From: a virus
Taxonomy: Duplodnaviria > Caudoviricetes
Reading direction: 5' to 3' (one strand)
DNA: 64,000 bases
Virus record (IMG/VR): IMGVR_UViG_3300020045_003522
Location: 4,362-68,361 of that record
The position numbers and the translations under genes were made by a program. A model generated the notes under the pieces. The model was not told where the DNA came from and did no database searches. It saw only the letters and a program-made list of their open reading frames with translations. Shown piece by piece: positions 1 through 64,000 of this stretch; the first letter of the stretch is position 1, and each line of letters begins with the position of its first letter.

Positions 1-1181
1 GACTTTTGCCGGCCAGCGTTGTTCGATGATGCACTGCCATCCCTTGAACTGGCTGCGCATTCTTGTGTCATTGTTAAATCAATTGTGCTCGCTCCGTTAC
101 CAACATCAACGATATTTGTAATCCCGTTACCAGTGGCAAAGCTTGTCCAAATATTGTAACCAGTGTTTAAAGCTCCAAGTCCTGAAGTCTGTGGACTAAC
201 ATAGTACCTCGTGCCTGACTGGTTGATTGTAGTGAGAAGCGTTGCCAACCTAGAAAGTAACGCTGTCTTTGGTGCTCCGCTCGATAGCGCGTCTACCTGT
301 TGTTTAGATTCGCGATAGTCGACAATATCAAGTGTCGCCTCTGCATTATCCGTGAATTGTGTCGCCTGAAGTGTTGCGTCTTTATTGAACTTTGCCGCGA
401 ATTGGAAGAAATTATACTCAGCGGTTGCCGGGTTGTAAACATGGTCGTTCCATATTCCTGAGTTGTGTGAATCAGAAGCACCCGTGTAATAATAACTACC
501 ACGCGCTGCTGGTGTTTCTTCACGCCATGCACTAAAGTCTCCGTTTGCCCAATATAATGATCCTCCAATTGTCTCTCCAAATGTGCCATCATTTGTACCA
601 TGATGCTGCCAAAACCCTATACCGTAGTAATTCGCCCAACCAGTTTGGAATGATGGCCCTGAAATCGGTATAACTGATGCTATCTGTGAGTATCGTGCTT
701 GTAGAATATTATAAGCCCCAATCGCTCCACCACTTAAACCGGTATAAGAAATTCTATTAGGATCATACTTTACTCCATCCGCTGTTAATTCTGTTAAGAT
801 ATCATCAAAATGCCCAGTATTTGGGTCTCCATCACCAACCGTATACTCACAAACGACTACAATGTGATCATAAGTTAAATCATCCCACGACCCATTATTG
901 AGGTAGTAATAAAGCCCTTCGCCTTCATTTACCCGGTTCGCCCAGGTGCGCATTCCGTAACCACCAAAAAAAACCATCAATGGTAAACTTCCCGCCGCCG
1001 CCTGGTCGTAACCCCTCGGTTTGTAAATGTAATATTCCCGTCCTGATTGGTAGTTACCACCACTTGCGAAAGATGGAGCGGATAGAGTCGTATTCCCAAA
1101 CGCACCACGATAAGAATTAACAAGTAACTGCCCGTTACAGGAAAGTGAAAATAAAAGAAGTACGTAAATTAATATCCGCAT
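1..1181 (-). CDS. Signal-peptide-bearing alpha/beta-hydrolase (esterase/peptidase, COG4099-like); runs off the window edge
   Basis: Absent from the ORF track; translated by hand from ATG 1181 and open to base 1. MRILIYVLLLFSLSCNG/Q leader, DPNRISYTGLSGGA nucleophile elbow, FWQHHGTND (Asp), SHNSGIW (His). TAATG overlap with the upstream gene. Confidence 0.8.
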   Translation of the reverse strand, partial: MRILIYVLLLFSLSCNGQLLVNSYRGAFGNTTLSAPSFASGGNYQSGREYYIYKPRGYDQAAAGSLPLMVFFGGYGMRTWANRVNEGEGLYYYLNNGSWDDLTYDHIVVVCEYTVGDGDPNTGHFDDILTELTADGVKYDPNRISYTGLSGGAIGAYNILQARYSQIASVIPISGPSFQTGWANYYGIGFWQHHGTNDGTFGETIGGSLYWANGDFSAWREETPAARGSYYYTGASDSHNSGIWNDHVYNPATAEYNFFQFAAKFNKDATLQATQFTDNAEATLDIVDYRESKQQVDALSSGAPKTALLSRLATLLTTINQSGTRYYVSPQTSGLGALNTGYNIWTSFATGNGITNIVDVGNGASTIDLTMTQECAASSRDGSASSNNAGRQK

Positions 1182-2221
1182 TAGTATCCGATTAAGGTTA
1201 CTTTAAGACCGGCTGCAGCAGTAGCGCCGTCAACCGAAACAATATCCACTGTTATCACCGAATCGTCAGATATCGCGGCATCTGAAATAACTACCGGCGT
1301 CGCCGCTGTTGTACTTGTCGTCTCTGTATTGTCAATAGTTAAGTTTGTGGAAAATATTGTAGTCCCGTTTTCCTTTACATTTATGGTTACCACTGTACCG
1401 GATGATTGAGCGGTTGTGAGCGATGCCCGAACGCCTGTCAAAGTCAAAGCGTAAGGCATTCTAAAAGTTACTTTTGCGGTTCCGGTCGTTAATGCTGTAA
1501 CCTCATCAGAAGCCGCTGCCATAAATGCTTTGTTAGCTGCCATTTGGCGAACTTCTCCGCTTGGAGTTTTCCAATACGGCAAATCATTAGCACTGTTGGA
1601 ATAAAATAAACCGCCGCCGGTCGGATTTCCTGAAGGGTTAGTTAAGGCTGTTTTAATGTAAACAACCCCAGCGCCGCTTCCATAAGAAGGAGTACCACCA
1701 ACCAAAGAAGTATTTGTTCGTGATGCTGTTAATCCACCATTAAGTTCTACAGAGTTTGGGTTTAATAGAACGACCCCGCTTACTCCACCAGCTCCTAAAT
1801 TCATTGCCCCTTGTGAGCTGACCACTAGAACTGCATCACTTGTAGAGTTAACCGCAGATAAGGTTTTTATAGCATCTGAATTGCTCGCGCTACCTAAAGT
1901 TAAAGCCGCTGTACTTGAAGAAAAGAACCCCGAAGCAACTGCGTTAGTCCCGTTAGACTTCATTAACTCATTGCTTGCTGCTGCGTTGGTTATGCCTCCA
2001 CCTGAATACTGAGGAATGTTTAAAGTCCCTGATGTGTACGTTGCCGCTCCGCTTGTTCCTGTTGTGGTTAAAGTGAAAGGTAATGCCCAAGTAGGTGGAG
2101 TAGAGCTTCCGTTACTTAAAGCAACTTGACCAGCCGTTCCGCCGTACGTTACATTTCCAAGCTGACCAAAGGAGTGAATTGAAATCAGTAGAAGAAATAA
2201 ATTGATTAATATTTTTTTCAT
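1181..2221 (-). CDS. Tail fibre-like protein with Sec signal peptide (module A)
   Basis: G/S/T-rich fibre motifs (LTTTGTSGAATYTSGTLNIPQY); C-terminal TTGTAKVTFRMPYALTLTGVRASL beta-sandwich common in phage fibres; leader MKKILINLFLLLISIHSFG/Q. Confidence 0.7.
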   Translation of the reverse strand: MKKILINLFLLLISIHSFGQLGNVTYGGTAGQVALSNGSSTPPTWALPFTLTTTGTSGAATYTSGTLNIPQYSGGGITNAAASNELMKSNGTNAVASGFFSSSTAALTLGSASNSDAIKTLSAVNSTSDAVLVVSSQGAMNLGAGGVSGVVLLNPNSVELNGGLTASRTNTSLVGGTPSYGSGAGVVYIKTALTNPSGNPTGGGLFYSNSANDLPYWKTPSGEVRQMAANKAFMAAASDEVTALTTGTAKVTFRMPYALTLTGVRASLTTAQSSGTVVTINVKENGTTIFSTNLTIDNTETTSTTAATPVVISDAAISDDSVITVDIVSVDGATAAAGLKVTLIGY

Positions 2222-2224
2222 TAT

Positions 2225-3727
2225 TTAAAGCCCTGCGGCGGTTAGTGCGTTGTGTAAAATTGTATAGTCCATTGTGGAAGCTTTGCCTATCTGTACAGAC
2301 TTGTAACCGAACCACCAATTATCTTGAAATGTTCCGGAGAGAACACGACCTCCAAATCCAGTAGGCTGATCCACTAATACTTGCGGGCCTGTGATTGTGT
2401 GTGGCGTACCAAACAAAACACCATTCTTAATGAATTGCATTTGATCACCAATTACCTGCATACCTATTCTGTCACCAACCGTGAAGTTAGCCGCAGCCGT
2501 TGTTATCTCGTCACCTGATTCTGTATTGAATCTTCCTACAATGTTTGATCCATCTCTTCTTAATGAAAATGCAGTTGTGCCATCGTCCGCACCAAATAAA
2601 TATCCGGGGTTATCCTCAAGGTCTGACGTGGTTAGATGAAGCATGACAAACATATCATCAACTTCAGCTTCCCTAAATGTTATTGCTGGATATATCCCTG
2701 TCAATGGCCGAGAAAAAACACTTGCCGCATACGTAACAGTCTCAGCCTCGAAAAATAAAGAAAGGTTTCCCATGGAATGTAAATAAGAGAAATCAATAGT
2801 CTGATCTCTCACATCACCAACCGGCCCTAACGCAAGAAAATCTAAATCCCAAATCAATGTATCTAATGACTGAGATAAAACTCTGAACTTTTCTTTTTTC
2901 GTCGAATCAATATCTTCAAAGAAACACGACGCTATTTGTGCGGCGACTTTCGGAAGTTTACGCGAATTTATTAACGCTCTTGAAAACATTTTTCCGGCTT
3001 CGATGCATCCGTCTGCATTCATGTGGTTCGCGTCATAAAAATATCCGGCTGCGTGAATGGCTTGATAATTAAAAGCATACCTCACTCTGTTGTTATTCTC
3101 AACAAGATCTTTAATCAATCTTTTAATATCTGATGTTCCAACCTGATTAGGAGTTGACAACGCCGGAGATACTACAAATACTCTTGATCCCGGAAACTCT
3201 GTTAGTATTGTTTCGTAATACTGTTCATGAAATGCAACCACGCTCGCAATAGGTTGATCTCTATCATTGATACCGATAGAAGAAATAATATCAATACCTG
3301 TCAAGTGTTGATCATGCATAAATGCTTTCACTACAGGTAAGTACTGTTCAAAGTATCCGCCATCCTCAACCCACTCTTCTGCTGTTGATCCGGCCACAGC
3401 CATATTCAAAATCATAGGCTTGAATCCAGTGGCTTCGTAGTAGTGTATACCAAACGCCGGGAAGATTGTTCCGACGGTAGCCCCCATTGCGTCTGACATA
3501 TCAGTATCGGTTATCTCAGTCACTTCCCGCGTGATTCTGTTAACCTGAAAGACTGTATTAGGATCAGGCTCAGGGCCAGCGGTTGCGTTAGGAGCGGCAA
3601 CTATAGAATCTCCAAAGCCGACAATCGCACGCTTGCCGTCACTCGTTACAAAGATTTGAAACTTCTCGTTTACCTGCCCATGCGCAAGGGCACTAGAAAG
3701 GAGTATTAATAAAATTATATTTTTCAT
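2225..3727 (-). CDS. SGNH/GDSL esterase domain protein with Sec signal peptide
   Basis: Block motifs GFGDSI, NMAVAGST, IGIND, DANH; leader MKNIILLILLSSALAHG/Q; beta-rich C-terminal half. Confidence 0.75.
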   Translation of the reverse strand: MKNIILLILLSSALAHGQVNEKFQIFVTSDGKRAIVGFGDSIVAAPNATAGPEPDPNTVFQVNRITREVTEITDTDMSDAMGATVGTIFPAFGIHYYEATGFKPMILNMAVAGSTAEEWVEDGGYFEQYLPVVKAFMHDQHLTGIDIISSIGINDRDQPIASVVAFHEQYYETILTEFPGSRVFVVSPALSTPNQVGTSDIKRLIKDLVENNNRVRYAFNYQAIHAAGYFYDANHMNADGCIEAGKMFSRALINSRKLPKVAAQIASCFFEDIDSTKKEKFRVLSQSLDTLIWDLDFLALGPVGDVRDQTIDFSYLHSMGNLSLFFEAETVTYAASVFSRPLTGIYPAITFREAEVDDMFVMLHLTTSDLEDNPGYLFGADDGTTAFSLRRDGSNIVGRFNTESGDEITTAAANFTVGDRIGMQVIGDQMQFIKNGVLFGTPHTITGPQVLVDQPTGFGGRVLSGTFQDNWWFGYKSVQIGKASTMDYTILHNALTAAGL

Positions 3728-5754
3728 CTTACCACTACCGTTTTAGCTGTCTCTTTAATCACTTCGTTTGTTCCAGCACTTGCCTGTACAGTTACAATTA
3801 AATTATTATTAAGGTTCATAGTAGCAGCTCCGGCACTATACGAAATCATATTATAAGCTGTCGAATTATTTGTTGAAAGCTTTACGTTACATTTCTGTGT
3901 TGCTGCACCTGTACGTATGATCTGGATTTCTAAGGTCCAATAATTAGTACCAGAAGAAAGAACAAAATTACCGCTATCAAATATTGTACTACCTTCAAAG
4001 TAAACTCGTATCCTTTTATCGTTAGCGCTACTTGTAAAAGTGCCAGATAATTTTGACTCTACAGATTCACCATCAACCACTAAAGTATTTGCTGGCACAT
4101 CGTAATTATATAAATCTGTTTCAGTTGTACCACTATTAGTGGTTTGTGAAGTGTTGGTATTTAGTACATTTTGAGCAATAGCCTGTACAGATGTATTACC
4201 ATATTGGTCAACAACAATATTTTTATAAGCTAATGCGCTCCCCGACACAAGAGATGGCATTTGTATATTACCAAGATAGTCTATGGTAAGCCTCGAAAGG
4301 TCAGCAAATCCAACACGAAAATATAACGACCCGGAATTGTTCGCGCTTATTGATAAACCATTTGGTGCATTACTGTATAACAACCCTGAGTTTGGTAGAT
4401 AGCCGTTGGCTGTAGCTTTTGTTCCAATGTAAGTTTGATAATCTGCGTCATTAATTCCGTATACAAATGATCCTGTAGCCGTACTAGTATTATCAGCAAT
4501 TAAGTAACTACCCGAAGATGATGATTTTGTAAGTGTTAAAGATGTTGTACTCATAGTTAAATCAGCACTTCCTGCCGCTGTGTTAGTTCCCGTGCCGACA
4601 AGTACTTGACCCGTCGAAACCGTTCCGCTAAGACCATCACCCCACTCAGGGATCAATCCTGCGCTAACCCTTAACACCTTACCAGCGGTGCTGATTGGCA
4701 ACCTCGCAGCAGCGCCACCTGTAGTACCATAAATTAAATCGCCCTCGGTAGTTATCGGGCTTTCAAAAGCGTCTGCGCCAACTCCACTAACAGTAATAAT
4801 TGGAGCGGTAGAAGATATATATAAAATCGTTCCTGTCTCACCGGGCGCTAGTACCGAAGCCCCCTCAGAAGTCACGCCGGTATCATCTACAAAATTAACA
4901 TCATCCGTTCCTTTATTAACCAATTCAATTTTTGTATCCAGAATAAGATTGTCAATGGTTAGATCAATTGGCGACGAGCTATCAAATATTATAACGTTGT
5001 TGTTGTCAGTCTGCACCGTTGCGCCATCCGCTGTTAATATTCTATAAACGTTCTCTACGTCCGAAGCTAACACAGGGCCACCACCGCCTCCTGAAATAGA
5101 ACTTACCGCCCTTCTTACTACTGACTTATCAGAGTTTTTTATAGCTAATACATATGCTGCAGTGTCGAGTGCCGGGAGAGTTCCGGGTAGTTTTATTTGA
5201 CCTGATCCACGGGTTAATGTTACGTCAGTTCCAACGCTCACGTTTCTATCGCCGTAAGTTGCCACCGTGCCTCCTGTGGTTGTTGTAACGTTACCTCCTG
5301 AAGTCTGTCCTAATCTTGTAGTCCCTGATTCTGCAACAAATCCAGACCCTGCGACAATATTAATATGACCTAAGTTGCCAATATCAATATGACCCATGTC
5401 AGTGATTTCTAACGTTGGGTTTGTTCCTGTTCCGTCAATTATAACGTTGTTACTTAATACAGAACCAGCGTCTAATACTTGTTGTAGTGTAGGGGTTGAG
5501 CCTGAACCACCACCAAAGCTAAAAACATGATCGTACCCTGAACCGTTATAAAAATCCCAGTGAGGTGTAGCAGCTTGTGCATTCCAAAAGAAGTCACCGT
5601 AATTTTGCCCGTGTCTTGTTGCCGAAGCTGAAATATGCGCCGCCGAGTCAGTTACCACACGGGTAAATACACTGCTAAAAGCCGCGCTACCAACCTGACC
5701 GAAAGAAGCAATTACGCTCGTTACAAATATTAAACTAAGAATTATTTTTTTCAT
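3724..5754 (-). CDS. Tail fibre-like protein with Sec signal peptide (module A)
   Basis: Gly linkers; PTLQQVLDAG and ITTEGDLIYG fibre motifs; shares an internal domain with 44722..47451; leader MKKIILSLIFVTSVIASFG/Q. Confidence 0.7.
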   Translation of the reverse strand: MKKIILSLIFVTSVIASFGQVGSAAFSSVFTRVVTDSAAHISASATRHGQNYGDFFWNAQAATPHWDFYNGSGYDHVFSFGGGSGSTPTLQQVLDAGSVLSNNVIIDGTGTNPTLEITDMGHIDIGNLGHINIVAGSGFVAESGTTRLGQTSGGNVTTTTGGTVATYGDRNVSVGTDVTLTRGSGQIKLPGTLPALDTAAYVLAIKNSDKSVVRRAVSSISGGGGGPVLASDVENVYRILTADGATVQTDNNNVIIFDSSSPIDLTIDNLILDTKIELVNKGTDDVNFVDDTGVTSEGASVLAPGETGTILYISSTAPIITVSGVGADAFESPITTEGDLIYGTTGGAAARLPISTAGKVLRVSAGLIPEWGDGLSGTVSTGQVLVGTGTNTAAGSADLTMSTTSLTLTKSSSSGSYLIADNTSTATGSFVYGINDADYQTYIGTKATANGYLPNSGLLYSNAPNGLSISANNSGSLYFRVGFADLSRLTIDYLGNIQMPSLVSGSALAYKNIVVDQYGNTSVQAIAQNVLNTNTSQTTNSGTTETDLYNYDVPANTLVVDGESVESKLSGTFTSSANDKRIRVYFEGSTIFDSGNFVLSSGTNYWTLEIQIIRTGAATQKCNVKLSTNNSTAYNMISYSAGAATMNLNNNLIVTVQASAGTNEVIKETAKTVVVR

Positions 5755-6188
5755 AACTCAGATTCTTTCTTTTTGAAAAACTTCCTTACCTTTTTAAATC
5801 CGAATATAAAGGCATCCCATACCACTCCTGACCCTACTAAGTACAAATCATTCCAACCAAGTTTTGCCTCCACTCCAAACAAAGGAGCAAGTGGATCAAC
5901 ACTTAAATTTCTAGCTCCTATCCAGAGTAGTAGAAAAATACAACCAAGCGAACCGATCCATGTTTCGTAATGAGTTTTAGCGTACATCTTTAAAGTAACA
6001 GGACTTTTTAAAATCATTCTCACGCCGTTAGCTAAAAGTGTTTTCGAGTTATCATCTAACCCATTACTTGCATTAATGTATTTTACAATTTCAGGTTCGT
6101 ACTCGCTGCCGTCTCCCTCTTGTTTTACTACACTAAATTCGGCCCAATTCCATAGAAACCAACCGAGTATGCTAATGAAGAAATTCAT
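5751..6188 (-). CDS. Membrane protein (about 3 TM, basic C-tail) inside the tail module
   Basis: Three hydrophobic segments and KKVRKFFKKK tail; positional counterpart of 47762..48157. Confidence 0.6.
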   Translation of the reverse strand: MNFFISILGWFLWNWAEFSVVKQEGDGSEYEPEIVKYINASNGLDDNSKTLLANGVRMILKSPVTLKMYAKTHYETWIGSLGCIFLLLWIGARNLSVDPLAPLFGVEAKLGWNDLYLVGSGVVWDAFIFGFKKVRKFFKKKESEL

Positions 6189-6192: not shown

Positions 6193-6660
6193 TTATACGT
6201 AAGCGTTTTGAGATATATCTATTTTCCAGTTAGTCCCATCAAAAACAGCGTGACCTTTGAAGCTCCCAGTTCCGCTTGGCTCCCATTCTTTTGATCCTGT
6301 CGCCTCCCATCTTGAGTCATCCATTGTAACAGTTGACGGGAATGTTAGTATAGCAGCAACGTTAGAGATGTTCAAAACAAAATCAAATTCTAATGCCTCA
6401 GAGTCATTTGAGAACGCAATAGTTTTCGGAGTTGCAAAAGATGTTAATCCCCAGAAAGTTCTTTTCTGTTTTAACTCGAAATCGAAAGTTATTGTACTGC
6501 CAGTTGTTGCGGGTGTTACCACATCAAGCACAAGGCAAAAGCTATCGATCATGTTTACAAGCATGTTTCTTACTCGTAGTTTTGTATTAGCTCCTACTGC
6601 TGTTTCATCCCGTATTACGTTGGCCTCTGTTGTTAATTCGGCTTTAGTTTTTATACTCAT
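6193..6660 (-). CDS. Minor tail protein / fibre adaptor
   Basis: N-terminal VIRDETAVGANTKLRV shared with 47451..47762; position before the fibre genes. Confidence 0.55.
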   Translation of the reverse strand: MSIKTKAELTTEANVIRDETAVGANTKLRVRNMLVNMIDSFCLVLDVVTPATTGSTITFDFELKQKRTFWGLTSFATPKTIAFSNDSEALEFDFVLNISNVAAILTFPSTVTMDDSRWEATGSKEWEPSGTGSFKGHAVFDGTNWKIDISQNAYV

Positions 6661-7943
6661 ATTACATTGTGGGTATAGCTGTTTTTATGTGTAAGCATTA
6701 TTTGCGCAGGCTTTAGGTTATATTTTTGATCTCTCTTTGTCAGTTCATACGACCCGCCATCTAATGAAATCTCAATATCGTTAACTAACACGCTTCCGCT
6801 TATTGAGTGCTGAAGTATCAATAATACTTTTCTATGCATGTATCTTGGCAAATCATTTAATATCAGATTTGATTTTTCTTTCAGCGTTGAAGCAGTGTTT
6901 ATAACCATTTCAGTAAGTTCCGAAACCTTTTCAGTTGTGGCGAAATCAGGTTCAACAAACTGACCATCTAAATCTATTGAGAAATACGGAGAGTCTTCAT
7001 CGTAAATTAACCCAGCAAAATTATTGATTGATCTGAATTGAATTACTACCCTTCCGTCATGGTTAGAATTAACCCATTCATAAACAAATTCAACCGAATC
7101 AGAATAAAATAATTCTATTTCATCTTCAAGATCAACAGCCTTTTGAATTATTTTAAATGTCAAAAACTTATTACATAATGAATAATCGTATGGCGAAAAT
7201 GAAACAGAGTTTAAATAGTAATTTGCTGGCACCGCTGGCACTACTGCTGTCGTCTGAGTGCCCGATACAGTGTTGATAATGATATCAATGTCGGACCCAT
7301 CACTAACTTCTACACCTATTTTTGTTTCTGTTCCAAGTGATACGAATGTCAACGTAACAGAATCAGTGCCACCAGGACTTGCTGGAGTTGTTTCGCTAAC
7401 GGTTTGTATTACATTGAACGAATTGTCATAAGCTCTAAGGTATAATGTTCTTGGATTACTTGTGCCCGAGTTGTAGAGTTTTGTATATGTTATCGTAATG
7501 CTGTAAGTGTAGCCTAAAATAAATGCAAATCCTGAATGTAATATTTCCGATTCACCAGGTGTAAACGGACCTGACCCCATAACATTAACACCAGGCGTCG
7601 CGCTAAGTATCCAATCTGCTAAAGATGGCGATATACTTCTTGTTAACCACGTGCTTAGGGCAGATATAGACATGGCTGACGTTACGCCTCCACTCGATGG
7701 TATTCCGTCATCAGTCTGAGTGAAATTAATTGTTTCAACCTCTTCCCCGTCCTCTAAAATCGATAGTCTTAATTCCTGATCGTCATCCGCGCCGCCTAAA
7801 ACTTGCAACTTTCTTAACCCTGTGCAAAGAAACTTTTGATGAAAGCAAGCGTCTTCCGTGTATGCTTCCTGCTTTATATTAAAGCTTTCCTCGCCTGTAG
7901 GCCAAAATTGAATTTCGCTTGCGTTAGATACTTGAAAGCTCAT
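6657..7943 (-). CDS. Distal tail / baseplate-like protein (module A)
   Basis: Co-linear paralogue of 48159..49436; downstream of tape measure and tail-tip genes. Confidence 0.55.
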   Translation of the reverse strand: MSFQVSNASEIQFWPTGEESFNIKQEAYTEDACFHQKFLCTGLRKLQVLGGADDDQELRLSILEDGEEVETINFTQTDDGIPSSGGVTSAMSISALSTWLTRSISPSLADWILSATPGVNVMGSGPFTPGESEILHSGFAFILGYTYSITITYTKLYNSGTSNPRTLYLRAYDNSFNVIQTVSETTPASPGGTDSVTLTFVSLGTETKIGVEVSDGSDIDIIINTVSGTQTTAVVPAVPANYYLNSVSFSPYDYSLCNKFLTFKIIQKAVDLEDEIELFYSDSVEFVYEWVNSNHDGRVVIQFRSINNFAGLIYDEDSPYFSIDLDGQFVEPDFATTEKVSELTEMVINTASTLKEKSNLILNDLPRYMHRKVLLILQHSISGSVLVNDIEISLDGGSYELTKRDQKYNLKPAQIMLTHKNSYTHNVI

Positions 7944-7961
7944 TTCAGGAAATTAATGTAT

Positions 7962-7991
7962 CAAAATTAAGAAAAGTTTTCATATTGGGAA
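7962..7991 (-). promoter_or_regulatory. Putative internal late promoter (Bacteroidota -7 box TAATTTTG plus upstream TTCCCA box)
   Basis: Minus strand TTCCCAATATGAAAACTTTTCT-TAATTTTG; near-identical element with the same 16-nt spacing at 49453..49482. Confidence 0.55.
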
Positions 7992-8001
7992 TAGTTTTCA
8001 T

Positions 8002-14068: not shown

Positions 14069-14075
14069 AAAGTAA

Positions 14076-14096: not shown

Positions 14097-14115
14097 CAAT
14101 AAACAAACCCAAAGA

Positions 14116-55637: not shown

Positions 55638-55644
55638 AATTTAA

Positions 55645-55664
55645 GGGCGAGCTTTCACCCGCCC
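55645..55664 (-). terminator. GC-rich GAAA-loop hairpin after the major tail gene
   Basis: Identical to 14076..14096. Confidence 0.55.
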
Positions 55665-55671
55665 CGTTTTA

Positions 55672-56562
55672 CTATGGAATGTTAACAGTGGCAGCGCCTA
55701 GAGATTCGTAGGACTGAATACTCAGAACATCAGGAGCCTTTAGGTTGATAGTACCATCAACAAACAGGTCGCCTGATTGTAGTATTTTATACTGACCCGG
55801 GATACTTGCGTGCGCTGTGATTGATGTAATCGTTACAGCAACACCGGAAGCATTAAGGTAAGTAAAGTCAGCCGCAACTAATCCAGTCACACCTGTTTGG
55901 TCGCAATCAGTAGCCACAAGAACGTCAATGTCGCCTGCGTCTGTGATTGTTACAACGGTTACGTTTACATCAACGATAGATTCAAGCTCGTTAATAAAGC
56001 TTGATGCGTCAAACATATACCCGTTTTTGTTTAGCTCAATGCTTTGTGAAAGAGCCACCACAACAGGGGATTTAGTTGAAACTGAACCGTCATTAAATTT
56101 GAAACCTTCAGGATTTAAGAGCTGAATTGAAAGGCCAGCGAAATCACCGTTAGACAAAAGAGTTCCCAATAAGAAACCGTTTTGATCTTTCAAAAATACT
56201 CTACCGTTCTTTCTGTAGTGAGTGTAAATTGCTTTGTGTAGACAAAGGTTTTCGCTCATTGAAAAACGGAAACGGTATTTGTTTTTCTGCACATCGATGA
56301 AAGCCAAAGGCGTATCTTCGTATACAGGTGCCACTGATATATCCTCTACCAATTTGAAAGGAGGCCAGTAGAAAATTCTATCTGCGATTGGGTCAAGTAG
56401 AGCCGCCTCAAGATACGCTTGTACTGCTGCTGCCCCCGATGCGAGAGTAGCGGCTGGTATTACGAAATCTGAGTTAGTCTCTATCATGCCGTCCATAAGT
56501 CCAGGCAGTTCATTACACCGCGATAGACCTAAATTTTTTGCTTCTTCAGTTGTACAAGCCAT
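55672..56562 (-). CDS. Major tail protein (module B)
   Basis: Paralogue of 14116..14988; different C-terminal Ig-like part. Confidence 0.7.
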   Translation of the reverse strand: MACTTEEAKNLGLSRCNELPGLMDGMIETNSDFVIPAATLASGAAAVQAYLEAALLDPIADRIFYWPPFKLVEDISVAPVYEDTPLAFIDVQKNKYRFRFSMSENLCLHKAIYTHYRKNGRVFLKDQNGFLLGTLLSNGDFAGLSIQLLNPEGFKFNDGSVSTKSPVVVALSQSIELNKNGYMFDASSFINELESIVDVNVTVVTITDAGDIDVLVATDCDQTGVTGLVAADFTYLNASGVAVTITSITAHASIPGQYKILQSGDLFVDGTINLKAPDVLSIQSYESLGAATVNIP

Positions 56563-56574
56563 GATATTTTATTT

Positions 56575-57117
56575 TTAGCAGTATTTGATTTTATTATTGA
56601 TTCTTAAATTCGTCAACTCAACCGCGTCAAGAGGTTGATTAAATACGTACGCTTTATTCCCTTGCGTTTCTTCTACTCCGTGGTGTAACATATCCCGCTT
56701 TGTGTGTGGTGGTGTTCCCATGTCACCATCCCAAGTAAACCCGAACCGCTTCAAACGATCTAAAAACAACTCATAAAGAGGGTAAAGAATAGGCTTTACA
56801 ACATTCAAATAACGATCAGGCGCATCATAAGTAACCTTTGTTTGTGATAAAATCGCTATGTTCAAATTGTAATTCACCAATCCGTTTTTTACATCTTCAT
56901 TCGTTGGCAGTCGTAACGCGATAGCCGGGTAAACTTTACCTTTGGTAGATCCCTTATCTCTGTCAATCATCTGCCTGTTCATCTCTACAGGTGTGCCGTA
57001 GAAATAATAAGGTGAATCTAATCCGGCCGTAATGCCCCACTTTGCCGCGTCTTTCGCGCTTAAGTTTCGCATTGAAACCACAACCTCTTCAATCTGTTCA
57101 GGAATACTTTTTATCAT
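56575..57117 (-). CDS. Tail terminator-like protein (module B)
   Basis: Nearly identical to 14990..15532. Confidence 0.55.
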   Translation of the reverse strand: MIKSIPEQIEEVVVSMRNLSAKDAAKWGITAGLDSPYYFYGTPVEMNRQMIDRDKGSTKGKVYPAIALRLPTNEDVKNGLVNYNLNIAILSQTKVTYDAPDRYLNVVKPILYPLYELFLDRLKRFGFTWDGDMGTPPHTKRDMLHHGVEETQGNKAYVFNQPLDAVELTNLRINNKIKYC

Positions 57118-57818
57118 ATCCCGAAAGTGTTTCGTTTAGGCTGCTCACCAAATTCATAAGCCAGATAATCATTGAAGTCTTGGAACGTTGAATCAAACGT
57201 GTCATCGAAAGTTCCTGAAGCAAAGTTTGTGTAATACAGATACCCATAAAGAGTATTGACCTGATTACATACGCCCCCTACTTTTTCGCTCCAATCATTC
57301 CACGCTCGGCAAATCAAAGTTCCAGGATCAAACGGAATATTGTTTTCGGTCTTTGGGGTCACAGTTCCATTGACGGTTTGTTGGAAAACATTATACTCAG
57401 TCCATCTGGAATAGATCAAAGCCTTTAAAGTCTTGACCATTCCATACCATCGGTAGTACTTTCCGTTAGCCAAATAGGTTGAGCCGTTCTTCAACAGTAA
57501 CCACCTGTTATTAGCTTCAATAAGTTCCCAATCAGAACCCTCCACAGGAACCGTTCCAGTCTGAACCGTTAACGCTTTCCATACATCATTGCCGTAAACA
57601 TATTGCTGATTGATAACAGTGGCTACAGTCGAAACCCACAAACCAGGCAGACCATTAAGCCCGGAAATAAAAGCATCGTAAAGGTTATCGCCCAAAACTT
57701 CACGCAAATACATTTCCTCTTCAGCATCAATAAAGTTCTGAAATTCTTCTGCCGCGCCTGTTGCCAGACTTGGAAGTCGATAAGGTAAAACGTTGAAGTC
57801 TTGAGCGGTAACGAACAT
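57114..57818 (-). CDS. Head-tail adaptor/connector (module B)
   Basis: Paralogue of 15529..16239. Confidence 0.55.
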   Translation of the reverse strand: MFVTAQDFNVLPYRLPSLATGAAEEFQNFIDAEEEMYLREVLGDNLYDAFISGLNGLPGLWVSTVATVINQQYVYGNDVWKALTVQTGTVPVEGSDWELIEANNRWLLLKNGSTYLANGKYYRWYGMVKTLKALIYSRWTEYNVFQQTVNGTVTPKTENNIPFDPGTLICRAWNDWSEKVGGVCNQVNTLYGYLYYTNFASGTFDDTFDSTFQDFNDYLAYEFGEQPKRNTFGI

Positions 57819-57821
57819 ATC

Positions 57822-58259
57822 TTATTTTGATCTAAATAGTTTAGCGGTAAAACTTGCACTCATCGTACCGGTACCGGTCCAGCTCACCCTATAGTAAGGC
57901 ATCGGGCTCCCTGAAATAATCCAGTGATAAGTATTACTTGCGTCCGTTGCTGTAATAGTAGCGAGTGCAGTAGCTGTATTAGGCGTGTTTAATGCCTTCC
58001 AGTTCGTGCCGTCAATACTGCCCTGCAATGTGAGTGTTCCGCCAACAGTTCCGCTTAACTTAGTAACCGCAACCCAAACGGTAGTCGTTACCGCTGGTGC
58101 AGCACTTACTGCATTACGAGTTGTAAGCGTTCCTACGCCTCCGTTAGTCACAGTGTCACTAGCCGCGTAAGGGCTTAGCGCATTCGTGAGGCTGTAAACT
58201 TGTGCGTTCGCTGAGAAGGCTACCAACCCAACGAATAAAAGTGTTATTAACTTTTTCAT
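57822..58259 (-). CDS. Beta-sandwich capsid decoration-like protein with Sec signal peptide (module B)
   Basis: Leader MKKLITLLFVGLVAFSANA/Q; paralogue of 16242..16682. Confidence 0.6.
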   Translation of the reverse strand: MKKLITLLFVGLVAFSANAQVYSLTNALSPYAASDTVTNGGVGTLTTRNAVSAAPAVTTTVWVAVTKLSGTVGGTLTLQGSIDGTNWKALNTPNTATALATITATDASNTYHWIISGSPMPYYRVSWTGTGTMSASFTAKLFRSK

Positions 58260-58264
58260 TTTTG

Positions 58265-58486
58265 TTATTTGATTTTAACCCAGCCTCGTTCTTGTAACAA
58301 TTCAGCGGTTCTTTTTGCCATTTGAAATTCCTCTCCATCCTTATGATAAGGATCACCAGCCAGTGATACTACCGTTACCGATACATCAATGATGGCATCT
58401 TTAGGAACTTGAAACTCAGTCTGAACCACTTCTTGAACATCTTCGCCAACTTTGGTTACTTCTTGTTCTTCTTTTTTCTTAGCCAT
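58265..58486 (-). CDS. Small head-associated protein (module B)
   Basis: Paralogue of 16686..16907. Confidence 0.6.
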   Translation of the reverse strand: MAKKKEEQEVTKVGEDVQEVVQTEFQVPKDAIIDVSVTVVSLAGDPYHKDGEEFQMAKRTAELLQERGWVKIK

Positions 58487-58488
58487 AA

Positions 58489-59739
58489 TTAAGGGATTGC
58501 AATTGCTGTTTTAACATTTGCAATGGTATCGTAAACGAAAGCCGCTGCATGGTTATCACTGTGGAATTGGTGGAAACGAGTTTCCGCAATAACAGTCACT
58601 AAGTTTTTAGTGAAGTCGTCATTTTCCCAACCGTATGCAACTCTGAAAGGCTTGTAAATTAATGTCTTCAAAGCGTCAACAGCGAATGCAAGTACAGAAC
58701 CGGCAGCGATGTTGTAATCTTCGATCAAGAATCCACCAGGGATAGGACGAAGATTTAAGCCCATGTATTGACCTTGGCTAATAGCCTTAGACATTTCCAT
58801 GTTCGCAACATCAACAGGGTGCATAACAACCATGATAGGACCGTCAATATATGAAGCTCTTATTTGAGCGATCAAAGCGCGGGCAACATCCCAGTTATTG
58901 GGATTTGAAGTTTCAATACCTGTCAATGTGTAAGCAGCCGCAAAAGAACGGATACCAGCCGGATCAGTTGCAGAAGCAGCAGCAGCACCCATAAGGATAC
59001 TATTAACATGCGCCTTTAATTGATACACCAATTCCGATTCGATGTACGAGGTCATACCGTCAATATCTTCCAAAAGTTCAGTAGCTACTTTCATAGATAC
59101 CGCAACTTTTTTCGCGTTAGACTTTTCAGTCTCAAGCGTGAATGACACTTTAGGCTTCGCTCCACCTGGCGCCAAGAAGTCAGCAGCACCGGAGTTTGCA
59201 GGGACTTTCTTGTTAACCCATGTGTAGGTTTCAAGGTTGGTCGATCCTTTAGCAATCAAATCCCACAAAGTAGGCTGAATACGAAGTAAATCAATAACCG
59301 GTGAACCTTGACGGATTAAAGCGCCAGCGCCCAAAGTAACGGTATTTGTGAATACAGTTGTTGGGGTCATTGGAGAATCGGCAGCCTTTATTTCCATCGG
59401 TTCCAAATCTGCTTTGGTCCCTGATTTAATCTTCTTGATTGCTTCAGCGTTCTTTTCAAACCATGATTTAACCTGGCCACGTACGCTAACATCTTGAGGC
59501 TTGCTTTCGGCAGCGCCTTTCAGCTTAGTGATTTCTTCACCTTGAGCGGTCATAATTGCAAATACTCCCGACTTTTCATCGAATAAGCTTTTCAACTTTG
59601 CCGCGTCAATACCTTCAAACGCTTTCATTTTCTCAACGACAGCCGCGTCCAGCTCTGCCTTTGTTTGGAAACCTTTCTTCGAAAGCATTTCCTCAGTTTG
59701 GGATTTTATTTTACCCAAAAGAATTTCTTCTTCGTTCAT
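58489..59739 (-). CDS. Major capsid protein, HK97 fold (module B)
   Basis: Co-linear with capsid A from AADSPMTPTT onward; divergent N-terminal delta domain. Confidence 0.9.
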   Translation of the reverse strand: MNEEEILLGKIKSQTEEMLSKKGFQTKAELDAAVVEKMKAFEGIDAAKLKSLFDEKSGVFAIMTAQGEEITKLKGAAESKPQDVSVRGQVKSWFEKNAEAIKKIKSGTKADLEPMEIKAADSPMTPTTVFTNTVTLGAGALIRQGSPVIDLLRIQPTLWDLIAKGSTNLETYTWVNKKVPANSGAADFLAPGGAKPKVSFTLETEKSNAKKVAVSMKVATELLEDIDGMTSYIESELVYQLKAHVNSILMGAAAASATDPAGIRSFAAAYTLTGIETSNPNNWDVARALIAQIRASYIDGPIMVVMHPVDVANMEMSKAISQGQYMGLNLRPIPGGFLIEDYNIAAGSVLAFAVDALKTLIYKPFRVAYGWENDDFTKNLVTVIAETRFHQFHSDNHAAAFVYDTIANVKTAIAIP

Positions 59740-60398
59740 TAGTAAATTTTTTTCGTGTTTAACAATTCGTTTAGTCCTTTTATCGGATTATGTGTTCCCG
59801 ATCCTTCAGGGTTATGTGTTGCCTGAAGCTCCTTTATTTTGTGTATAATAAATTCAATCTGTTTTCCTTTCGAGTTGCTTACATCAAACTTCTTTAAATA
59901 AAGTTCTAAGTCTGCAATTGATACATCATCGAAAGATTTCATTCCAAGTAGGGGGGTTTCTGGATTCATCCCCAGTCCAACGGTACTATATTCGTACATC
60001 TTCAATTCAAATATTTCCTCCCCGCGACCACGAGACTTGCCTTTTATTGTCTCGTATCCGAATGAATGTTCTAGCGTCTTACCGTGTTCTTTGAAAAACT
60101 TGTAGTCGCTGAATAGGTCGCGCGAAATTTGTTTCTCAAGATTTAAAGCGGATTCAACAACAGCATGTTTATCTGTTTCGTACATCTTAACAGGCAGTCC
60201 GACATTAGCCATTTGCTTTAAAGAATGGTCCATGTAGTGCTTAATCCTATCACCGCCCTCTTTGAACGTGCGAGTAAAAGCACCTTTACGAACTATATCC
60301 CCGCCCATATCTTCGTTATCAAAACGAGATATCGCGATTGTAACTATGCCTTTTTCGGCAACGTCAACAACTTCAGACTTTAGGCTCTTGTATTTCAT
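59739..60398 (-). CDS. HK97-family prohead protease (module B)
   Basis: GDIVRKGAFTRT, YMDH (His), EHSFGY (Ser), YEYSTVGLGMNPET. Confidence 0.88.
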   Translation of the reverse strand: MKYKSLKSEVVDVAEKGIVTIAISRFDNEDMGGDIVRKGAFTRTFKEGGDRIKHYMDHSLKQMANVGLPVKMYETDKHAVVESALNLEKQISRDLFSDYKFFKEHGKTLEHSFGYETIKGKSRGRGEEIFELKMYEYSTVGLGMNPETPLLGMKSFDDVSIADLELYLKKFDVSNSKGKQIEFIIHKIKELQATHNPEGSGTHNPIKGLNELLNTKKIY

Positions 60399-61798
60399 AC
60401 TTCTTCTTGATTTTGTTCTGTACCTGTTCCTGGTAACTCTTCTGTGGTGTCGGTTTCTGCAATAGGTCGTTCAGCCATTGGCTTAACCTCGTCTTTTTTG
60501 TATTTGTCTCCATCTGGTCCTATGGTATCGTAACCCCTGGCGGTTAACCACATGTTACGGGTTATTAAATTGTTATCGTATTCGAGTAAAAGTGAATCGT
60601 TTTGAGCTTTTGCAGCTTGTGCCTCAAGTAATGCGTCCTCCTGAAGTGCTGCCACTTTCAAGAAATTACCAACAATCTTTGCGTTGTTGTCTGCTGCTTT
60701 AAAGAACTTGTTATACTTGTTCAGGTCCTTTGTGTTGTTTGGGATAACATTGTTAACATATACACCCTTTTCAGCATTCAAACCATTTGCATAAGTCGCG
60801 TCTTGTTGTTCAAATAACGTGTAAGGGAATCCGTAACGGTGGCAAATTGCTTTAGATCCTGAGATTACTGTAGGATCAATACCCAACTCAGTAACGTTAA
60901 AACTCATCGGGTTCCAAGTGGCCGGACTGCGACTTATAACATACTGATATTGTGCAAGCGATAGCCCGTATTGAGTTAACGAATCCTGTAGGTCTTTCTT
61001 TTCTTTATCCTGCATCGGCAATGTAGACCCCATTCCATCTTTCCCGCCATTACCTGAAATAAACCCTAACGGACCGCGCTTTGTAAGCAAAACGTTGTTA
61101 GCCTCCATCGCTCTACAGATATTACTAACAGCCATATCAAGCCCAACTAAACGCGATTGAGGTAAAAGGAAATCTGTTTGCTCATCCTGCATGAATGAGT
61201 CCTCAAGTATAATTATCTGATCGTGCCTAAACTTGAATGACTTACCTAAGATTGTAACCTTCCATTCCTTTATAATTTCTTCAGGCTTGGAAGTGAAAAT
61301 AAGGTTCTTTGTGCTTTCGAAATCAAATAACCACGGGGGTAAATTGATCATCGAAGTAGCAAATTCAGGTGGCATTCCGGCTGGCACGAATGGCAATACA
61401 GGACAAAACCCGAACACCTTTTTGTAGATTACCTGTTGACCTCTAAACTGCTCCCATGATTGCATAGGGTTAGGATTGGAGAGTAAAGCATTCATCCTGT
61501 TAGCCCATTCAGAAGTAGCAAAGTTTTCCTTACCCTTACCCGTGGACCTTAGAATCTCAATCGTTCCGGTAATGTCGTACTCTGCCAACCTATCAACAAC
61601 CGAAGCCAAAGGGTAGCAATAATCATACGCGTACTTTTGTTGCTGCTTGTCTTTTAATCCCAGCCACGAACAGTTATCGCCTTTTATCTCGATTGTTTGC
61701 CCTTTGTCATTGTAAGGGATAAATGAAACGCCTGAATCTACATGGCCAAAATTAGGACCCGCGATAGTGCCGAACATATTATTTAAGAATCCTCTCAT
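60395..61798 (-). CDS. Portal protein (module B)
   Basis: Paralogue of 18940..20415 with a different C-terminus. Confidence 0.9.
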   Translation of the reverse strand: MRGFLNNMFGTIAGPNFGHVDSGVSFIPYNDKGQTIEIKGDNCSWLGLKDKQQQKYAYDYCYPLASVVDRLAEYDITGTIEILRSTGKGKENFATSEWANRMNALLSNPNPMQSWEQFRGQQVIYKKVFGFCPVLPFVPAGMPPEFATSMINLPPWLFDFESTKNLIFTSKPEEIIKEWKVTILGKSFKFRHDQIIILEDSFMQDEQTDFLLPQSRLVGLDMAVSNICRAMEANNVLLTKRGPLGFISGNGGKDGMGSTLPMQDKEKKDLQDSLTQYGLSLAQYQYVISRSPATWNPMSFNVTELGIDPTVISGSKAICHRYGFPYTLFEQQDATYANGLNAEKGVYVNNVIPNNTKDLNKYNKFFKAADNNAKIVGNFLKVAALQEDALLEAQAAKAQNDSLLLEYDNNLITRNMWLTARGYDTIGPDGDKYKKDEVKPMAERPIAETDTTEELPGTGTEQNQEEV

Positions 61799-61941
61799 TG
61801 TCTGGTGCGGTTAAATTCCTTCACCTTCTCAATTAGCTTCTTATCTTGGTATTCTTTATACGTTTTAACGGATGCGATTATAAGCCACTCGATAACACGC
61901 GCGGCCAGTATAGCGGAAAGGACAGAAAAGAATATCTGCAT
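61795..61941 (-). CDS. 48-aa single-TM micro-protein upstream of the portal
   Basis: Hand-translated MQIFFSVLSAILAARVIEWLIIASVKTYKEYQDKKLIEKVKEFNRTRQ; ATGA overlap with the portal. Confidence 0.7.
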   Translation of the reverse strand: MQIFFSVLSAILAARVIEWLIIASVKTYKEYQDKKLIEKVKEFNRTRQ

Positions 61942-62012
61942 TAATTTCCTTGATTTTGTATCAAAGTAAGAAAATGTAATGCGTATTTCCTAAAGTGGGA
62001 ATAATTATTTAT

Positions 62013-63194
62013 TTAAGAACTGTTTCTATAGAAGTGTGAGTATATCCCAAATCGGATAGCATCTAGTAAATGTTCGTTACCTTCTGATGGTACATTCATA
62101 AACTTACCATTGGCCGGGTCTTTCATCCACATATAACGCTTTCTTTCAAAGTCTATGTTCTTGGATGATTCTGTAAAGAAAATATTGTACTCCTTTACTT
62201 TTGCTATCCCAGCCTTTATTGATCCTGGTCCTTTATGTGCCGCTATCATGAAAAGGTTAAATGGGTCAGAACGTAATTGCCTGATCATGTCCGGGTCATG
62301 TTCTGAATAGATAGGTGTTTCGCTTGTAAAGTTGCTCGACTTGAAAAGCGTGTTAATTTGAACCGGAGTCATAGCCGGTTGATAACAAAGCTCATGTACG
62401 TAGATGTTATTCGCAATCTTCACCATGTTAACCGCTGCCGTGGGGTCATTAGTATACCCGTAGTCAATCCCGCCAAACCTTCCATCTTCTGTCCATGGGT
62501 ACTCGCTGTCTGGTATCATCTTCCAATTTGTATAAATCAATCCTGAAAGATTACCGGTTAACCCACGGGCGTACACGCGCCAAAGTTCCGGATCTTTTAT
62601 TCCCTCTATTTCAGCGTGCTGTTGCTCTGTGAGGAAAGGATTGTGCCTATGATCTGAGATGATTAACTCAACTGTCTTGGAAAGATCGTTTGATTTCGCT
62701 GTGGTGCCTATTAGTTTTTCATGTGCCCAGAACGGACTTGAAGGATTATAATCACAATACACCCTAACGCGGGTACGGGATGCTATTTGTCGGAATATTT
62801 GCCAAGTAACCCCGTTTGCCTCATTAAAGAAAGCGTATTGCCTTTTACCTTGCTTTGCTTTTTGCTCGCTGTCGTACGCTGTAAACTCAAGTATCCATCC
62901 TGATGTAAAAGTTATTGTTCGCTCAGTTTTGTTCCATTCCTTGATATAGCTTCTTAATGATGGGCTCGCGTTGCATTGTTCTTCAAACTTTCGATATGCA
63001 CCCTTCTTTGAATCGGGAACGGTCTGACTAATTACCGTAATTATTGGATCTTCTAATGGCGCTGCGGTAGTACATAAATAAGCAAGTACCTGAATAATCG
63101 CAACGGTCTTACCTGCGTCTTGGCCCCCCTGATTTATTACAATCCCAGCCTGTGAGTTTAGATTCTTATGGAAAAGAGGGCCAGAGTTAAACAC
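62013..63194 (-). CDS. terL: Terminase large subunit (module B)
   Basis: Walker A NQGGQDAGKT, Walker B FFNEAN, IDYGYTNDPTA, HLLDAIRF. Confidence 0.92.
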   Translation of the reverse strand: MFNSGPLFHKNLNSQAGIVINQGGQDAGKTVAIIQVLAYLCTTAAPLEDPIITVISQTVPDSKKGAYRKFEEQCNASPSLRSYIKEWNKTERTITFTSGWILEFTAYDSEQKAKQGKRQYAFFNEANGVTWQIFRQIASRTRVRVYCDYNPSSPFWAHEKLIGTTAKSNDLSKTVELIISDHRHNPFLTEQQHAEIEGIKDPELWRVYARGLTGNLSGLIYTNWKMIPDSEYPWTEDGRFGGIDYGYTNDPTAAVNMVKIANNIYVHELCYQPAMTPVQINTLFKSSNFTSETPIYSEHDPDMIRQLRSDPFNLFMIAAHKGPGSIKAGIAKVKEYNIFFTESSKNIDFERKRYMWMKDPANGKFMNVPSEGNEHLLDAIRFGIYSHFYRNSS

Positions 63195-63229
63195 ACAGAA
63201 TTAAATTTTGTTTTGTTGTATTGGCGCGG

Positions 63230-63742
63230 TTACTGACCATCATTTAATTTGGTTTGTTGTACTTCTGATTCATCCCCAGCAAATGGAGGTGCGCCTGAAT
63301 AAACGTTGATCGGTGGGGGGCTTTGTATTTTTTCACCACCTGATGTGTGGTCGATCTCTGTCTTGTCCGACCATCCCATATTTTTTAAAGCGAAGATAGC
63401 ACCTACTGTTCCGGTCTTAGTTCCCATCATATTCTCATAAAGATTCTCGATTTTAGAGCGTGCGGCTTTTATAGCGTACCCAAACCCTTCTTTCTTTTCG
63501 TACTTGTAAAACGCGTCTCGGCTCATAAATCCAAGAAAAAGAGTCAATCCTGTTATCGTTGGGCGGTTTTCGTAAACCTCTATACCCCTGGCCTTGCGCT
63601 GTTCTTTTGTGGTCTCCTCCTCGAATAATTCAAAGTACTCCTTTACCATGTTTTCAAGATCCTCGACTTTAGTAAAATAAGGCGGCCTGCCTCCATTGTC
63701 GGCATGCTCCTTAGTCTCTATGGTTTCCTTATTCTCCATCAA
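63230..63742 (-). CDS. terS: Terminase small subunit (P22 gp3-like), module B
   Basis: 104 consecutive residues identical to terS A. Confidence 0.85.
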   Translation of the reverse strand: MMENKETIETKEHADNGGRPPYFTKVEDLENMVKEYFELFEEETTKEQRKARGIEVYENRPTITGLTLFLGFMSRDAFYKYEKKEGFGYAIKAARSKIENLYENMMGTKTGTVGAIFALKNMGWSDKTEIDHTSGGEKIQSPPPINVYSGAPPFAGDESEVQQTKLNDGQ

Positions 63743-63909
63743 AATCCCCAGTAAAGTTTAAATCCATTATCGTCTAAATCTGTTGCGGTATTATATCCAG
63801 CTGACAAAAGTAGTCTAATGTCTTAATCATTTGCCATGCGCTTCGTGGCCTAATAACGCCTTTTACTTTAGCGTTTCGCTTGCCTTCGTTTAATACCTTC
63901 CAAGTAATT

Positions 63910-64000
63910 TTATTCTCCATTCCAGATATCCTTTAAAAGTTTGAAAACAGGGTAAAGGAAGTGCTTTTTTGGGTGTCCTACTATCGCTAAAGCATGTTCA
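63910..64000 (-). CDS. 3' end of a homologue of 22816..23082
   Basis: Hand-translated ...KKHFLYPVFKLLKDIWNGE*. Confidence 0.55.
   Translation of the reverse strand, partial: EHALAIVGHPKKHFLYPVFKLLKDIWNGE

Follow-up and report, generated by a model that had tools for sequence, protein, structure and literature searches.

The record analyzed here is a linear JGI/IMG virus record of 68,361 bp, and the window is its right-hand 64 kb, with window base 64000 being the record's final base. Window coordinates refer to this 64-kb stretch and contig coordinates to the whole 68,361-bp record. Self-BLASTN of the whole contig revealed collinear same-strand matches between window ~6660-22400 and ~48160-63740, at offsets of 41.4 to 41.6 kb and with 71 to 76% DNA identity; the longest exact match inside the contig is 28 bp. 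The matches correspond to two morphogenesis modules, A and B, on either side of a single-copy middle (Table 1).

Table 1. Features of the 64-kb window (window coordinates).
Feature	Position	Strand	Basis or remark
Distal tail and fiber genes, unit A	1-6188	-	ORFs; no B counterparts in all-against-all BLASTP
Conserved morphogenesis module A	6193-22394	-	PHROG matches, pairing with module B
Further module A genes	8002-10587 and 6657-7943	-	
Tape measure A	10578-13043	-	
Overlapping tail-chaperone ORFs, module A	13027-14089	-	
Major capsid A	16910-18175	-	Head-tail and tail genes next in order
Protease A	18179-18943	-	
Portal A	18940-20415	-	
terL-A	20592-21773	-	
terS-A	21837-22394	-	PHROG
Early/replication region, single-copy	22395-34306	-	PHROG; collinear with L114 and G006
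DNA methyltransferase	26942-27679	-	PHROG
Primase/helicase	29471-31201	-	PHROG
HNH endonuclease	31923-32375	-	PHROG
Divergent point, early genes (-) versus reverse arm (+)	34307-34371		
Reverse arm	34372-38693	+	PHROG
119-aa protein, arm	35016-35375	+	
Exonuclease, arm	35372-36016	+	PHROG
340-aa protein, arm	36000-37022	+	
139-aa protein, arm	37119-37538	+	
154-aa orphan, arm	37986-38450	+	
72-aa ORF, arm end	38476-38693	+	
Convergent gap, arm end versus cassette B end	38694-38704		11 bp
Post-tail small-gene cassette B, putative lysis cassette	38705-40897	-	Pfam
DUF5675 protein, cassette B	39821-40231	-	Pfam; membrane proteins alongside
Esterase B, alpha/beta-hydrolase	41170-41940	-	GLSMGG motif
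Distal tail and fiber genes, unit B	41937-48157	-	
Conserved morphogenesis module B	48159-63742	-	Self-BLASTN, protein pairing, PHROG
Module B tail genes, including tape measure	52111-54612 (tape measure)	-	
Capsid B	58489-59739	-	
Protease B	59739-60398	-	
Portal B	60395-61798	-	
terL-B	62013-63194	-	
terS-B	63230-63742	-	
Start of second early region	63743-64000	-	Homologue of 22816-23082; contig stops here

Fourteen of the 15 A/B gene pairs tested encode proteins that are 62 to 92% identical and of near-equal lengths, with no internal stops. The PHROG families common to both modules are those of terS (phrog_606), terL (phrog_2), the protease (phrog_80), and the major head protein (phrog_10). 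Synonymous sites between A and B are near saturation or saturated; wherever dS is unsaturated, dN/dS is 0.07 to 0.15, and for terS dS is 0.66 and dN/dS is 0.09. Both modules are under purifying selection. An earlier note on this DNA had described two intact, diverged modules running from terS to the tail about 41.4 kb apart, with no premature stop in either copy and with largely synonymous differences in terS, and our measurements bear it out on each of these points. Its statement that every gene occurs twice goes too far: identity between the two proteases is just 27%, almost nothing is common to the distal tail regions (window 1-6188 versus 41937-48157), and the post-tail cassettes are not homologous by all-against-all BLASTP. 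PHROG yielded no names for the distal tail and fiber genes of unit A, which runs on to the left of the window with esterase A and lysis cassette A (contig 720-4020). Esterase A resembles solved esterases (E ~2e-4) and is 28% identical to esterase B.

The modules are separated by an early region, which also has many small ORFs, and by a reverse arm found at the same position and in the same orientation in the relatives L114, G001, G002, and G006. The 340-aa gene lies beside the exonuclease gene, in a position like that of an annealing-protein gene, and the phages probably encode an annealing protein besides the exonuclease. The 154-aa arm protein had no relative among 5.8 billion protein clusters searched, and IMG/VR scans with the 340-aa and a 199-aa protein retrieved nothing. 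Proteins of the middle are mostly singletons at 90% identity in a 15-billion-protein collection. The 11-bp gap that the earlier note had placed at 38693/38705, between the convergent ends of the arm and cassette B, is present in the sequence. In G006 the corresponding ends overlap (41577 and 41563), and tight or overlapping convergent ends are native to this phage group. Exact-protein look-ups with the two genes flanking the gap came back empty, and scans for terminators and promoters at the convergent junctions gave nothing above shuffled controls.

Comparison with L114 (43 kb) showed that its early genes are like those beside A (primase, 58% identity; HNH, 67%); next come an arm, with the 119-aa protein at 94%, and a B-like cassette, in the order and orientation of window 24962-40897; three homologues of cassette B genes at the matching position are 88%, 40%, and 38% identical. 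G006 is collinear with window 23938-26930, and the sequence at the divergent point of G006 aligns with window 34355-34417 at 81% identity. The single-copy middle is collinear with single-module relatives of 42 to 43 kb, and therefore the A-middle-B order is that of one circular genome read past one turn. GC content is 0.38 in the early region and arm, 0.377 in the B-unique parts, and 0.41 to 0.42 in those of A. GC and tetranucleotide composition were considered as a guide to whether the early region and arm belong to A or to B, and we rejected this, because the same early-below-late GC offset is seen in single-module relatives, which makes GC uninformative on the A/B origin of the middle.

Repeat-bounded relatives measure 39.4, 41.2, 42.1, and 44.6 kb, and a Logan contig relative measures 43.0 kb, each with a single structural module; relatives whose capsid protein is 58 to 80% identical are repeat-bounded genomes of 39 to 41 kb. 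The record far exceeds these repeat-bounded or near-complete relatives (39.4 to 44.6 kb); for this group of Bacteroidota-associated phages, it is ~1.65 genome lengths long. Exactly one capsid gene was found in each of the 31 related records that reach 30 kb or more, and two are present here. Ns are absent from the record, which excludes a scaffolding join. A megablast search of GenBank phages with the whole window retrieved nothing. The group consists of diverse, integrase-less, Bacteroidota-associated phages of 39 to 45 kb and is strongly mosaic, with terminase, protease, fiber, and lysis genes swapped freely within a fixed arm/early/late layout. G006, the head and tail genes of which are unrelated, shares 38- to 70-bp blocks at 100% identity with the early region and is 79 to 87% identical to lysis cassette A.

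TerL-A is 80% identical to terL of G002, an independent 41-kb phage, and 62% identical to terL-B. In the terL phylogeny it is sister to the G002 protein (SH-aLRT 99) and a grouping of A with B is rejected (p-AU 0.0008), which argues against duplication in place. For the portal, the best tree pairs B with G001, yet an A+B clade is unrejected (p-AU 0.48). For terL, the copies are not mutual closest relatives, as in-genome duplication would have them be. The terL tree also bears on the proposal that the record is part of a single phage genome, longer than 68 kb, whose two morphogenesis modules would build two types of particle. Such a genome would account for two intact modules under purifying selection with differing distal tail genes. 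However, the two terL copies do not group as sisters, the right edge holds the beginning of another early region, and every one of the 31 related records carries a single capsid gene; moreover, capsid relatives at 58 to 80% identity package 39 to 41 kb, and 68 to 83 kb would be a misfit in the same head. We regard a two-particle genome as very unlikely indeed.

We then considered the contig ends. Upstream of terS-B, window 63892-64000 holds the 3' end of a homologue of the gene at 22816-23082, and no repeat boundary is visible at the right contig end. To the left of window base 1 lies a second lysis cassette (contig 720-3170), with an M15 endolysin at contig 1420-1854. The left contig end itself, outside the window, consists of 0.73 kb from a third relative, in inverted orientation. 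Its plus-strand run, composed of an esterase C terminus, a membrane protein of 69 aa, and a holin-like gene cut off after 59 of its 139 residues, joins a minus-strand gene (contig 720-1145) tail-to-tail via two truncated genes. The minus-strand gene ends ~27 residues short relative to its three homologues, and homology on both sides of the join stops within contig 726-733. No other copy of the esterase fragment was found, and exact 40- and 44-mers from both contig ends had no match in JGI metagenome contigs. Periodic continuation would have cassette A converging on an intact second arm end; inverted late-operon-type genes occupy that place instead. The earlier note was right that the gene upstream of terS-B is homologous to one upstream of terS-A and right to suggest from this that another early region starts there; the second lysis cassette left of base 1, which it had predicted for a dimer, is also present. 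What a dimer predicts for the left flank is found in part, the cassette being there and a second arm or replication region being replaced by the truncated, inverted fragment.

Both ends are relevant to the idea that the contig is a real head-to-tail heteroconcatemer or cointegrate, in which two related phages recombined once in one cell in the shared early/arm stretch and the product was abundant enough to assemble. The exact head-to-tail order and the collinearity of the middle with single-module relatives are as a homologous crossover would give, and the second lysis cassette at the left and the early region beginning at the right are as predicted. The strong mosaicism of the group also fits. 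As the phages encode an exonuclease in the arm and, in the adjoining 340-aa gene, a probable annealing protein, two genomes infecting the same cell could plausibly recombine. Mixed replicative concatemers of co-infecting phages are transient intracellular intermediates that are not expected to dominate an assembly. The contig resembles them in its head-to-tail units, in a switch that would lie at a homologous position, and in the phage-encoded exonuclease. However, packaging reduces such molecules to unit length, monomers should greatly outnumber them, the contig shows neither circle closure nor periodic continuation at the left, where the inverted fragment lies, and two modules are present in no other record of the group. 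A heteroconcatemer is an unlikely account of the record. Under it, the contig would represent a real DNA molecule, a mixed dimer or concatemer made by in vivo homologous recombination between co-infecting Bacteroidota siphophages ~25% diverged, with different tail fibers and lysis cassettes.

If one host carried two related temperate phages as tandem prophages or as a stable dimeric episome, two related genomes would also lie side by side in the same orientation, as in double lysogens. Tandem and multiple lysogeny is a well-known phenomenon, and distant relatives of the capsid gene do lie inside large Bacteroidota genome scaffolds (L095 to L104). Such an arrangement requires att junctions, flanking host DNA, and a site for an integrase (or host Xer), and this contig showed none of the three. 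Phage_integrase (PF00589) and Resolvase (PF00239) had no match in the whole contig, while they do match control genomes, and both are also absent from the records of four related phages, of which three are rated complete; tyrosine and serine recombinases are thus lacking from the contig and the related records searched. The 68-kb contig contains no tRNA genes, no host genes, and no att-like or direct repeats at the unit borders, although flanks may lie beyond its ends. This agrees with the absence of integrase, att-like repeats, and host genes in the earlier note. Close relatives were found solely as phage-sized contigs of ~40 kb, and we consider tandem prophages quite improbable.

The reading that we favor, with a probability of roughly 70%, is that the record is a composite metagenomic contig to which several mosaic phages present together contributed. 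Metagenome assembly most likely strung together a pair of related phages, each of ~41 kb, as opposed to one virus with two kits for building particles. In favor of this reading are the length of the record, the collinearity of the middle with single-module relatives, the two terL lineages, the lack of integration machinery, the truncated join at the left end, the sequence shared with G006, and the over-length contigs described with CheckV. Of the three possibilities that the earlier note had offered without choosing, a natural heterodimer, one genome building two virion types, and an assembly chimera, this favors the third. The genomes of the group assemble as circles of ~41 kb and keep to a single layout, made up of a short reverse arm, the divergent point, early genes, terS, head, tail, esterase, and lysis genes, the last converging on the arm end. 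The contig reads like ~1.65 turns of that circular map, passing in gene direction from the late genes of lineage B through one arm and one early region to the late genes of lineage A. As the path runs through the late genes of B and then those of A, the contig appears to string together two distinct phages of the same sample. The switch between genomes would lie within the single-copy middle, at a point where the two phages are homologous, and the 0.73-kb inverted scrap of a third relative is attached at the left end. We infer that the assembler, or else library preparation, produced the joins, and that they did not arise in a cell.

Some observations count against a composite contig. No stretch identical between A and B and able to mislead an assembler is visible, given the 28-bp longest match, and any crossing point would fall in the part present only once. 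The portal tree, with its unrejected A+B clade, counts against it too, as do the absence of Ns, of a repeat boundary at the right end, and of A or B as a separate single-genome contig, which our searches did not find.

Concatenated genomes in over-length IMG/VR contigs were described with CheckV and judged to be probable assembly artifacts; those cases were the same genome repeated and were detected by a k-mer frequency above 1 (PMC8116208). Like them, the present record is a viral contig far over the expected length, with more than one turn of a circularly assembling genome. Unlike them, its two turns are ~25% different in DNA, and it is not a repeat of one genome. With turns this different and so short a longest exact repeat, the k-mer check would pass the record, and the completeness given for it is 100.

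If the record is an artifact, it calls for caution, as its turns are too diverged for k-mer-based concatemer checks and yet it was scored "100% complete"; such a record would inflate inferences of genome size, gene content, and host range. If the join is real, the contig would be a snapshot of a recombination intermediate exchanging whole late modules in mosaic phage populations, of moderate interest for the origin of phage mosaicism.

Analysis of the left part of the contig also revealed an inverted 172-bp repeat (contig 86-257 versus 3174-3345), the copies of which are only 70% identical. A diversity-generating retroelement was rejected because the mismatches show no adenine specificity and each copy is coding sequence, and an invertible fiber segment of the Mu G type was rejected because an invertase is absent and the repeat is merely 70% identical. 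Other over-length records met in the course of this work (54 to 108 kb) belong to unrelated phage types, without this capsid.

Self-comparison of the whole contig by BLASTN yielded collinear, same-strand matches of 71 to 76% identity between window positions ~6660-22400 and ~48160-63740, at offsets of 41.4 to 41.6 kb. In an all-against-all BLASTP analysis the proteins of the left and right morphogenesis modules (A and B) paired up from TerS through a 428-aa tail protein, with 60 to 91% identity and near-equal lengths; the proteases were the sole exception, giving no match. TerS, TerL, the protease and the major head protein belong to the same PHROG families in both modules. Tape measure A matches tape-measure families, and tape measure B was assigned by its 65% identity to A rather than by profile scan. 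None of the 15 gene pairs has an internal stop, and dN/dS is 0.07 to 0.15 across the pairs with measurable dS; dS itself ranges from 0.66 for terS to saturation for the terL, portal, tube and tape measure genes. The proposal of two diverged modules, intact and under selection, was thus borne out. Three points limit the claim that every gene occurs twice: the two proteases have only 27% identity, the distal tail genes are almost wholly different and the two post-tail cassettes are not homologous.

The portal and capsid genes that flank the proteases are 71 to 72% identical between A and B, and the protease difference looks like a local swap within otherwise similar head modules. In a Logan contig, the B-type protease is again found beside a capsid of 93% identity. 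Overlapping ORFs ahead of the tape measure have the layout usual for a tail assembly chaperone produced through programmed frameshifting; at 85 to 87% identity they belong to the best-conserved A/B pairs.

The source record is one contig of 68,361 bp (JGI/IMG), linear according to IMG/VR, with a CheckV completeness of 100, 0 Ns, and no tRNA genes found along its length. It ends with window base 64000 and extends 4,361 bp to the left of the window. IMG/VR contigs bearing capsid relatives cluster at 38 to 46 kb. Four relatives are bounded by direct terminal repeats (G001, 39.4 kb; G002, 41.2 kb; G005, 44.6 kb; G006, 42.1 kb), the last three being 100% complete per CheckV. Each of them, like the related Logan contig L114 (43.0 kb), has one structural module. 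By profile search, each of the 31 related records that are 30 kb or longer has exactly one capsid gene, versus two in the present record. Matches in genome collections indicate Bacteroidota as hosts; the best of them are contigs of phage size that were placed in metagenome-assembled genomes by binning. No tyrosine or serine recombinase was found by family search in the contig, where the earlier note had seen no integrase between the modules, or in four related records; therefore the phage group does not look integrating. Tandem prophages are very unlikely, every defining feature that could be tested being absent.

From the divergent point (window ~34306), early and late genes alike run on the minus strand. 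The early genes (HNH endonuclease, primase/helicase, methyltransferase) are followed by terS, terL, portal, protease, capsid, tail, tape measure, distal tail, esterase and a small-gene cassette. This plan, with a plus-strand arm leaving the divergent point and the late genes converging on its end, is common to G001, G002, G006 and L114; G005 has the same late-gene order, with no arm resolved. The 11-bp gap where arm and cassette B converge is present and is not suspicious, because touching or overlapping convergent ends are native in the group (G006). The last 258 bp of the window include the 3' terminal part of a gene homologous to window 22816-23082; therefore a second early region starts to the right of terS-B, as had been suggested.

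TerL-A shares 80% identity with its counterpart in G002, a complete and independent phage of 41 kb, versus only 62% with TerL-B. In the terL tree, TerL-A and G002 were sisters (SH-aLRT 99) and an A+B clade was rejected (p-AU 0.0008). The best portal topology joined B with G001 (SH-aLRT 90), the A+B constraint not being rejected (p-AU 0.48). For further genes, outside relatives were equal to or closer than the other copy. The modules are therefore two lineages of a mosaic group, of which A, at least, has a single-module sister. Duplication of the module in place was rejected on the terL result. A single genome that builds two virion types from two particle kits is very unlikely, given that phages with closely related capsids package about 40 kb, that two modules occur in none of the relatives, that the terL genes are not sisters, and that another early region opens at the right edge.

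L114 matches window 24962-40897 in order and orientation, through early genes, arm and cassette B. Its homologues are 58% (primase), 67% (HNH) and 78% (78-aa protein) identical for the early genes adjoining A, 94% (119-aa protein) and 44% (exonuclease) for the arm, and 88%, 40% and 38% for cassette B, with DNA blocks at 81 to 85% identity in all three parts alike. G006 is collinear with window 23938-26930, as far as its terminase. As the middle is collinear with single-module relatives, A-middle-B is just the order expected when a circular genome of the group is read past one turn, except that the second pass runs through another lineage's late genes. For the same reason, the A/B switch can be placed no finer than the whole single-copy stretch. 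Blocks of 38 to 70 bp, 98 to 100% identical to G006, occur at early-gene starts (window 25915-25984, 26477-26520 and 28151-28188); they look like conserved boundary sequences that would permit module exchange or assembler crossing. The head and tail genes of G006 are unrelated to those of the contig.

Beyond cassette A there is no second arm, and plus-strand late-type genes are found instead. The product of the adjoining minus-strand lysis-cassette gene stops ~27 residues before its homologues at window 39438-39824, in G006 and in L114, and is without the hydrophobic helix in which they end. Homology on either side stops within contig 726-733, 0.73 kb from the contig end, where no palindrome was found. 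This is a tail-to-tail join via two 3'-truncated lysis-cassette genes; either a contig end made chimeric by a third relative or the scar of an old illegitimate recombination could explain it, and it is at odds with a clean periodic dimer. The flanks predicted for a dimer were thus found in part: a second lysis cassette lies left of base 1 and an early region starts on the right, but the left side has no second arm.

We favor an assembly artefact over a recombinational heterodimer, with a probability of about 0.7, because the contig is not closed and has no periodic continuation, because a second, clearly non-homologous join sits at its end, because many related phages with shared exact blocks (38 to 70 bp, 100%, G006) occur in the sample series, and because metagenome assembly is known to yield over-length concatenated contigs (PMC8116208). 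The first two points also count against a real heterodimer of two phages, which remains the alternative. Against the artefact, no identical stretch where an assembler could cross between A and B was found, and neither A nor B was found as a monomer in the public collection, where nearly all middle proteins are singletons, which accounts for the latter result.

Features of the two units and of the left contig end
Feature	Coordinates	Strand	Remarks
Arm	window 34372-38693	+	shares divergent point with early genes; exonuclease and neighbours
Head-maturation proteases	window 18179-18943 (A), 59739-60398 (B)		both phrog_80; 254 vs 219 aa; 27% identical
Overlapping ORF pairs	window 13027-14089 (A), 54605-55637 (B)		upstream of tape measure
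Esterases (alpha/beta-hydrolase)	window 41170-41940 (B), contig 3172-4020 (A)	-	GLSxGG motif
DUF5675 protein	window 39821-40231	-	cassette B; sole family match there
Receiver domain protein	contig 1851-2234	-	cassette A; stand-alone response regulator; PF00072, E 4e-11
M15 (VanY-type) peptidase endolysin	contig 1420-1854	-	cassette A
Lysis-cassette gene	contig 720-1145	-	aligns with three homologues to stop codon
56-aa ORF	contig 581-751	+	matches just residues 8-66 of 139-aa G001 late-region membrane protein
69-aa membrane protein	contig 338-547	+	
Third esterase, C-terminus	contig 2-259	+ (inverted)	last 85 residues; 64% identical to esterase A, 37% to B

The DUF5675 protein may be the lysin of cassette B. 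In cassette A, the receiver domain protein lies directly upstream of the endolysin, and G006 has a 59% identical homologue at the equivalent place; a CheckY-like receiver within a phage lysis cassette is unusual. In A, B, G002 and G006 an esterase gene separates the distal tail genes from the lysis cassette; the esterases, that of A with an N-terminal signal-like segment, may be virion associated or lysis associated. Within the 241-aa gene immediately upstream of the primase/helicase lie five tandem 8-bp units (TTGGTTNA; window 31483-31523), which are iteron-like and may point to an origin of replication within an initiator gene.
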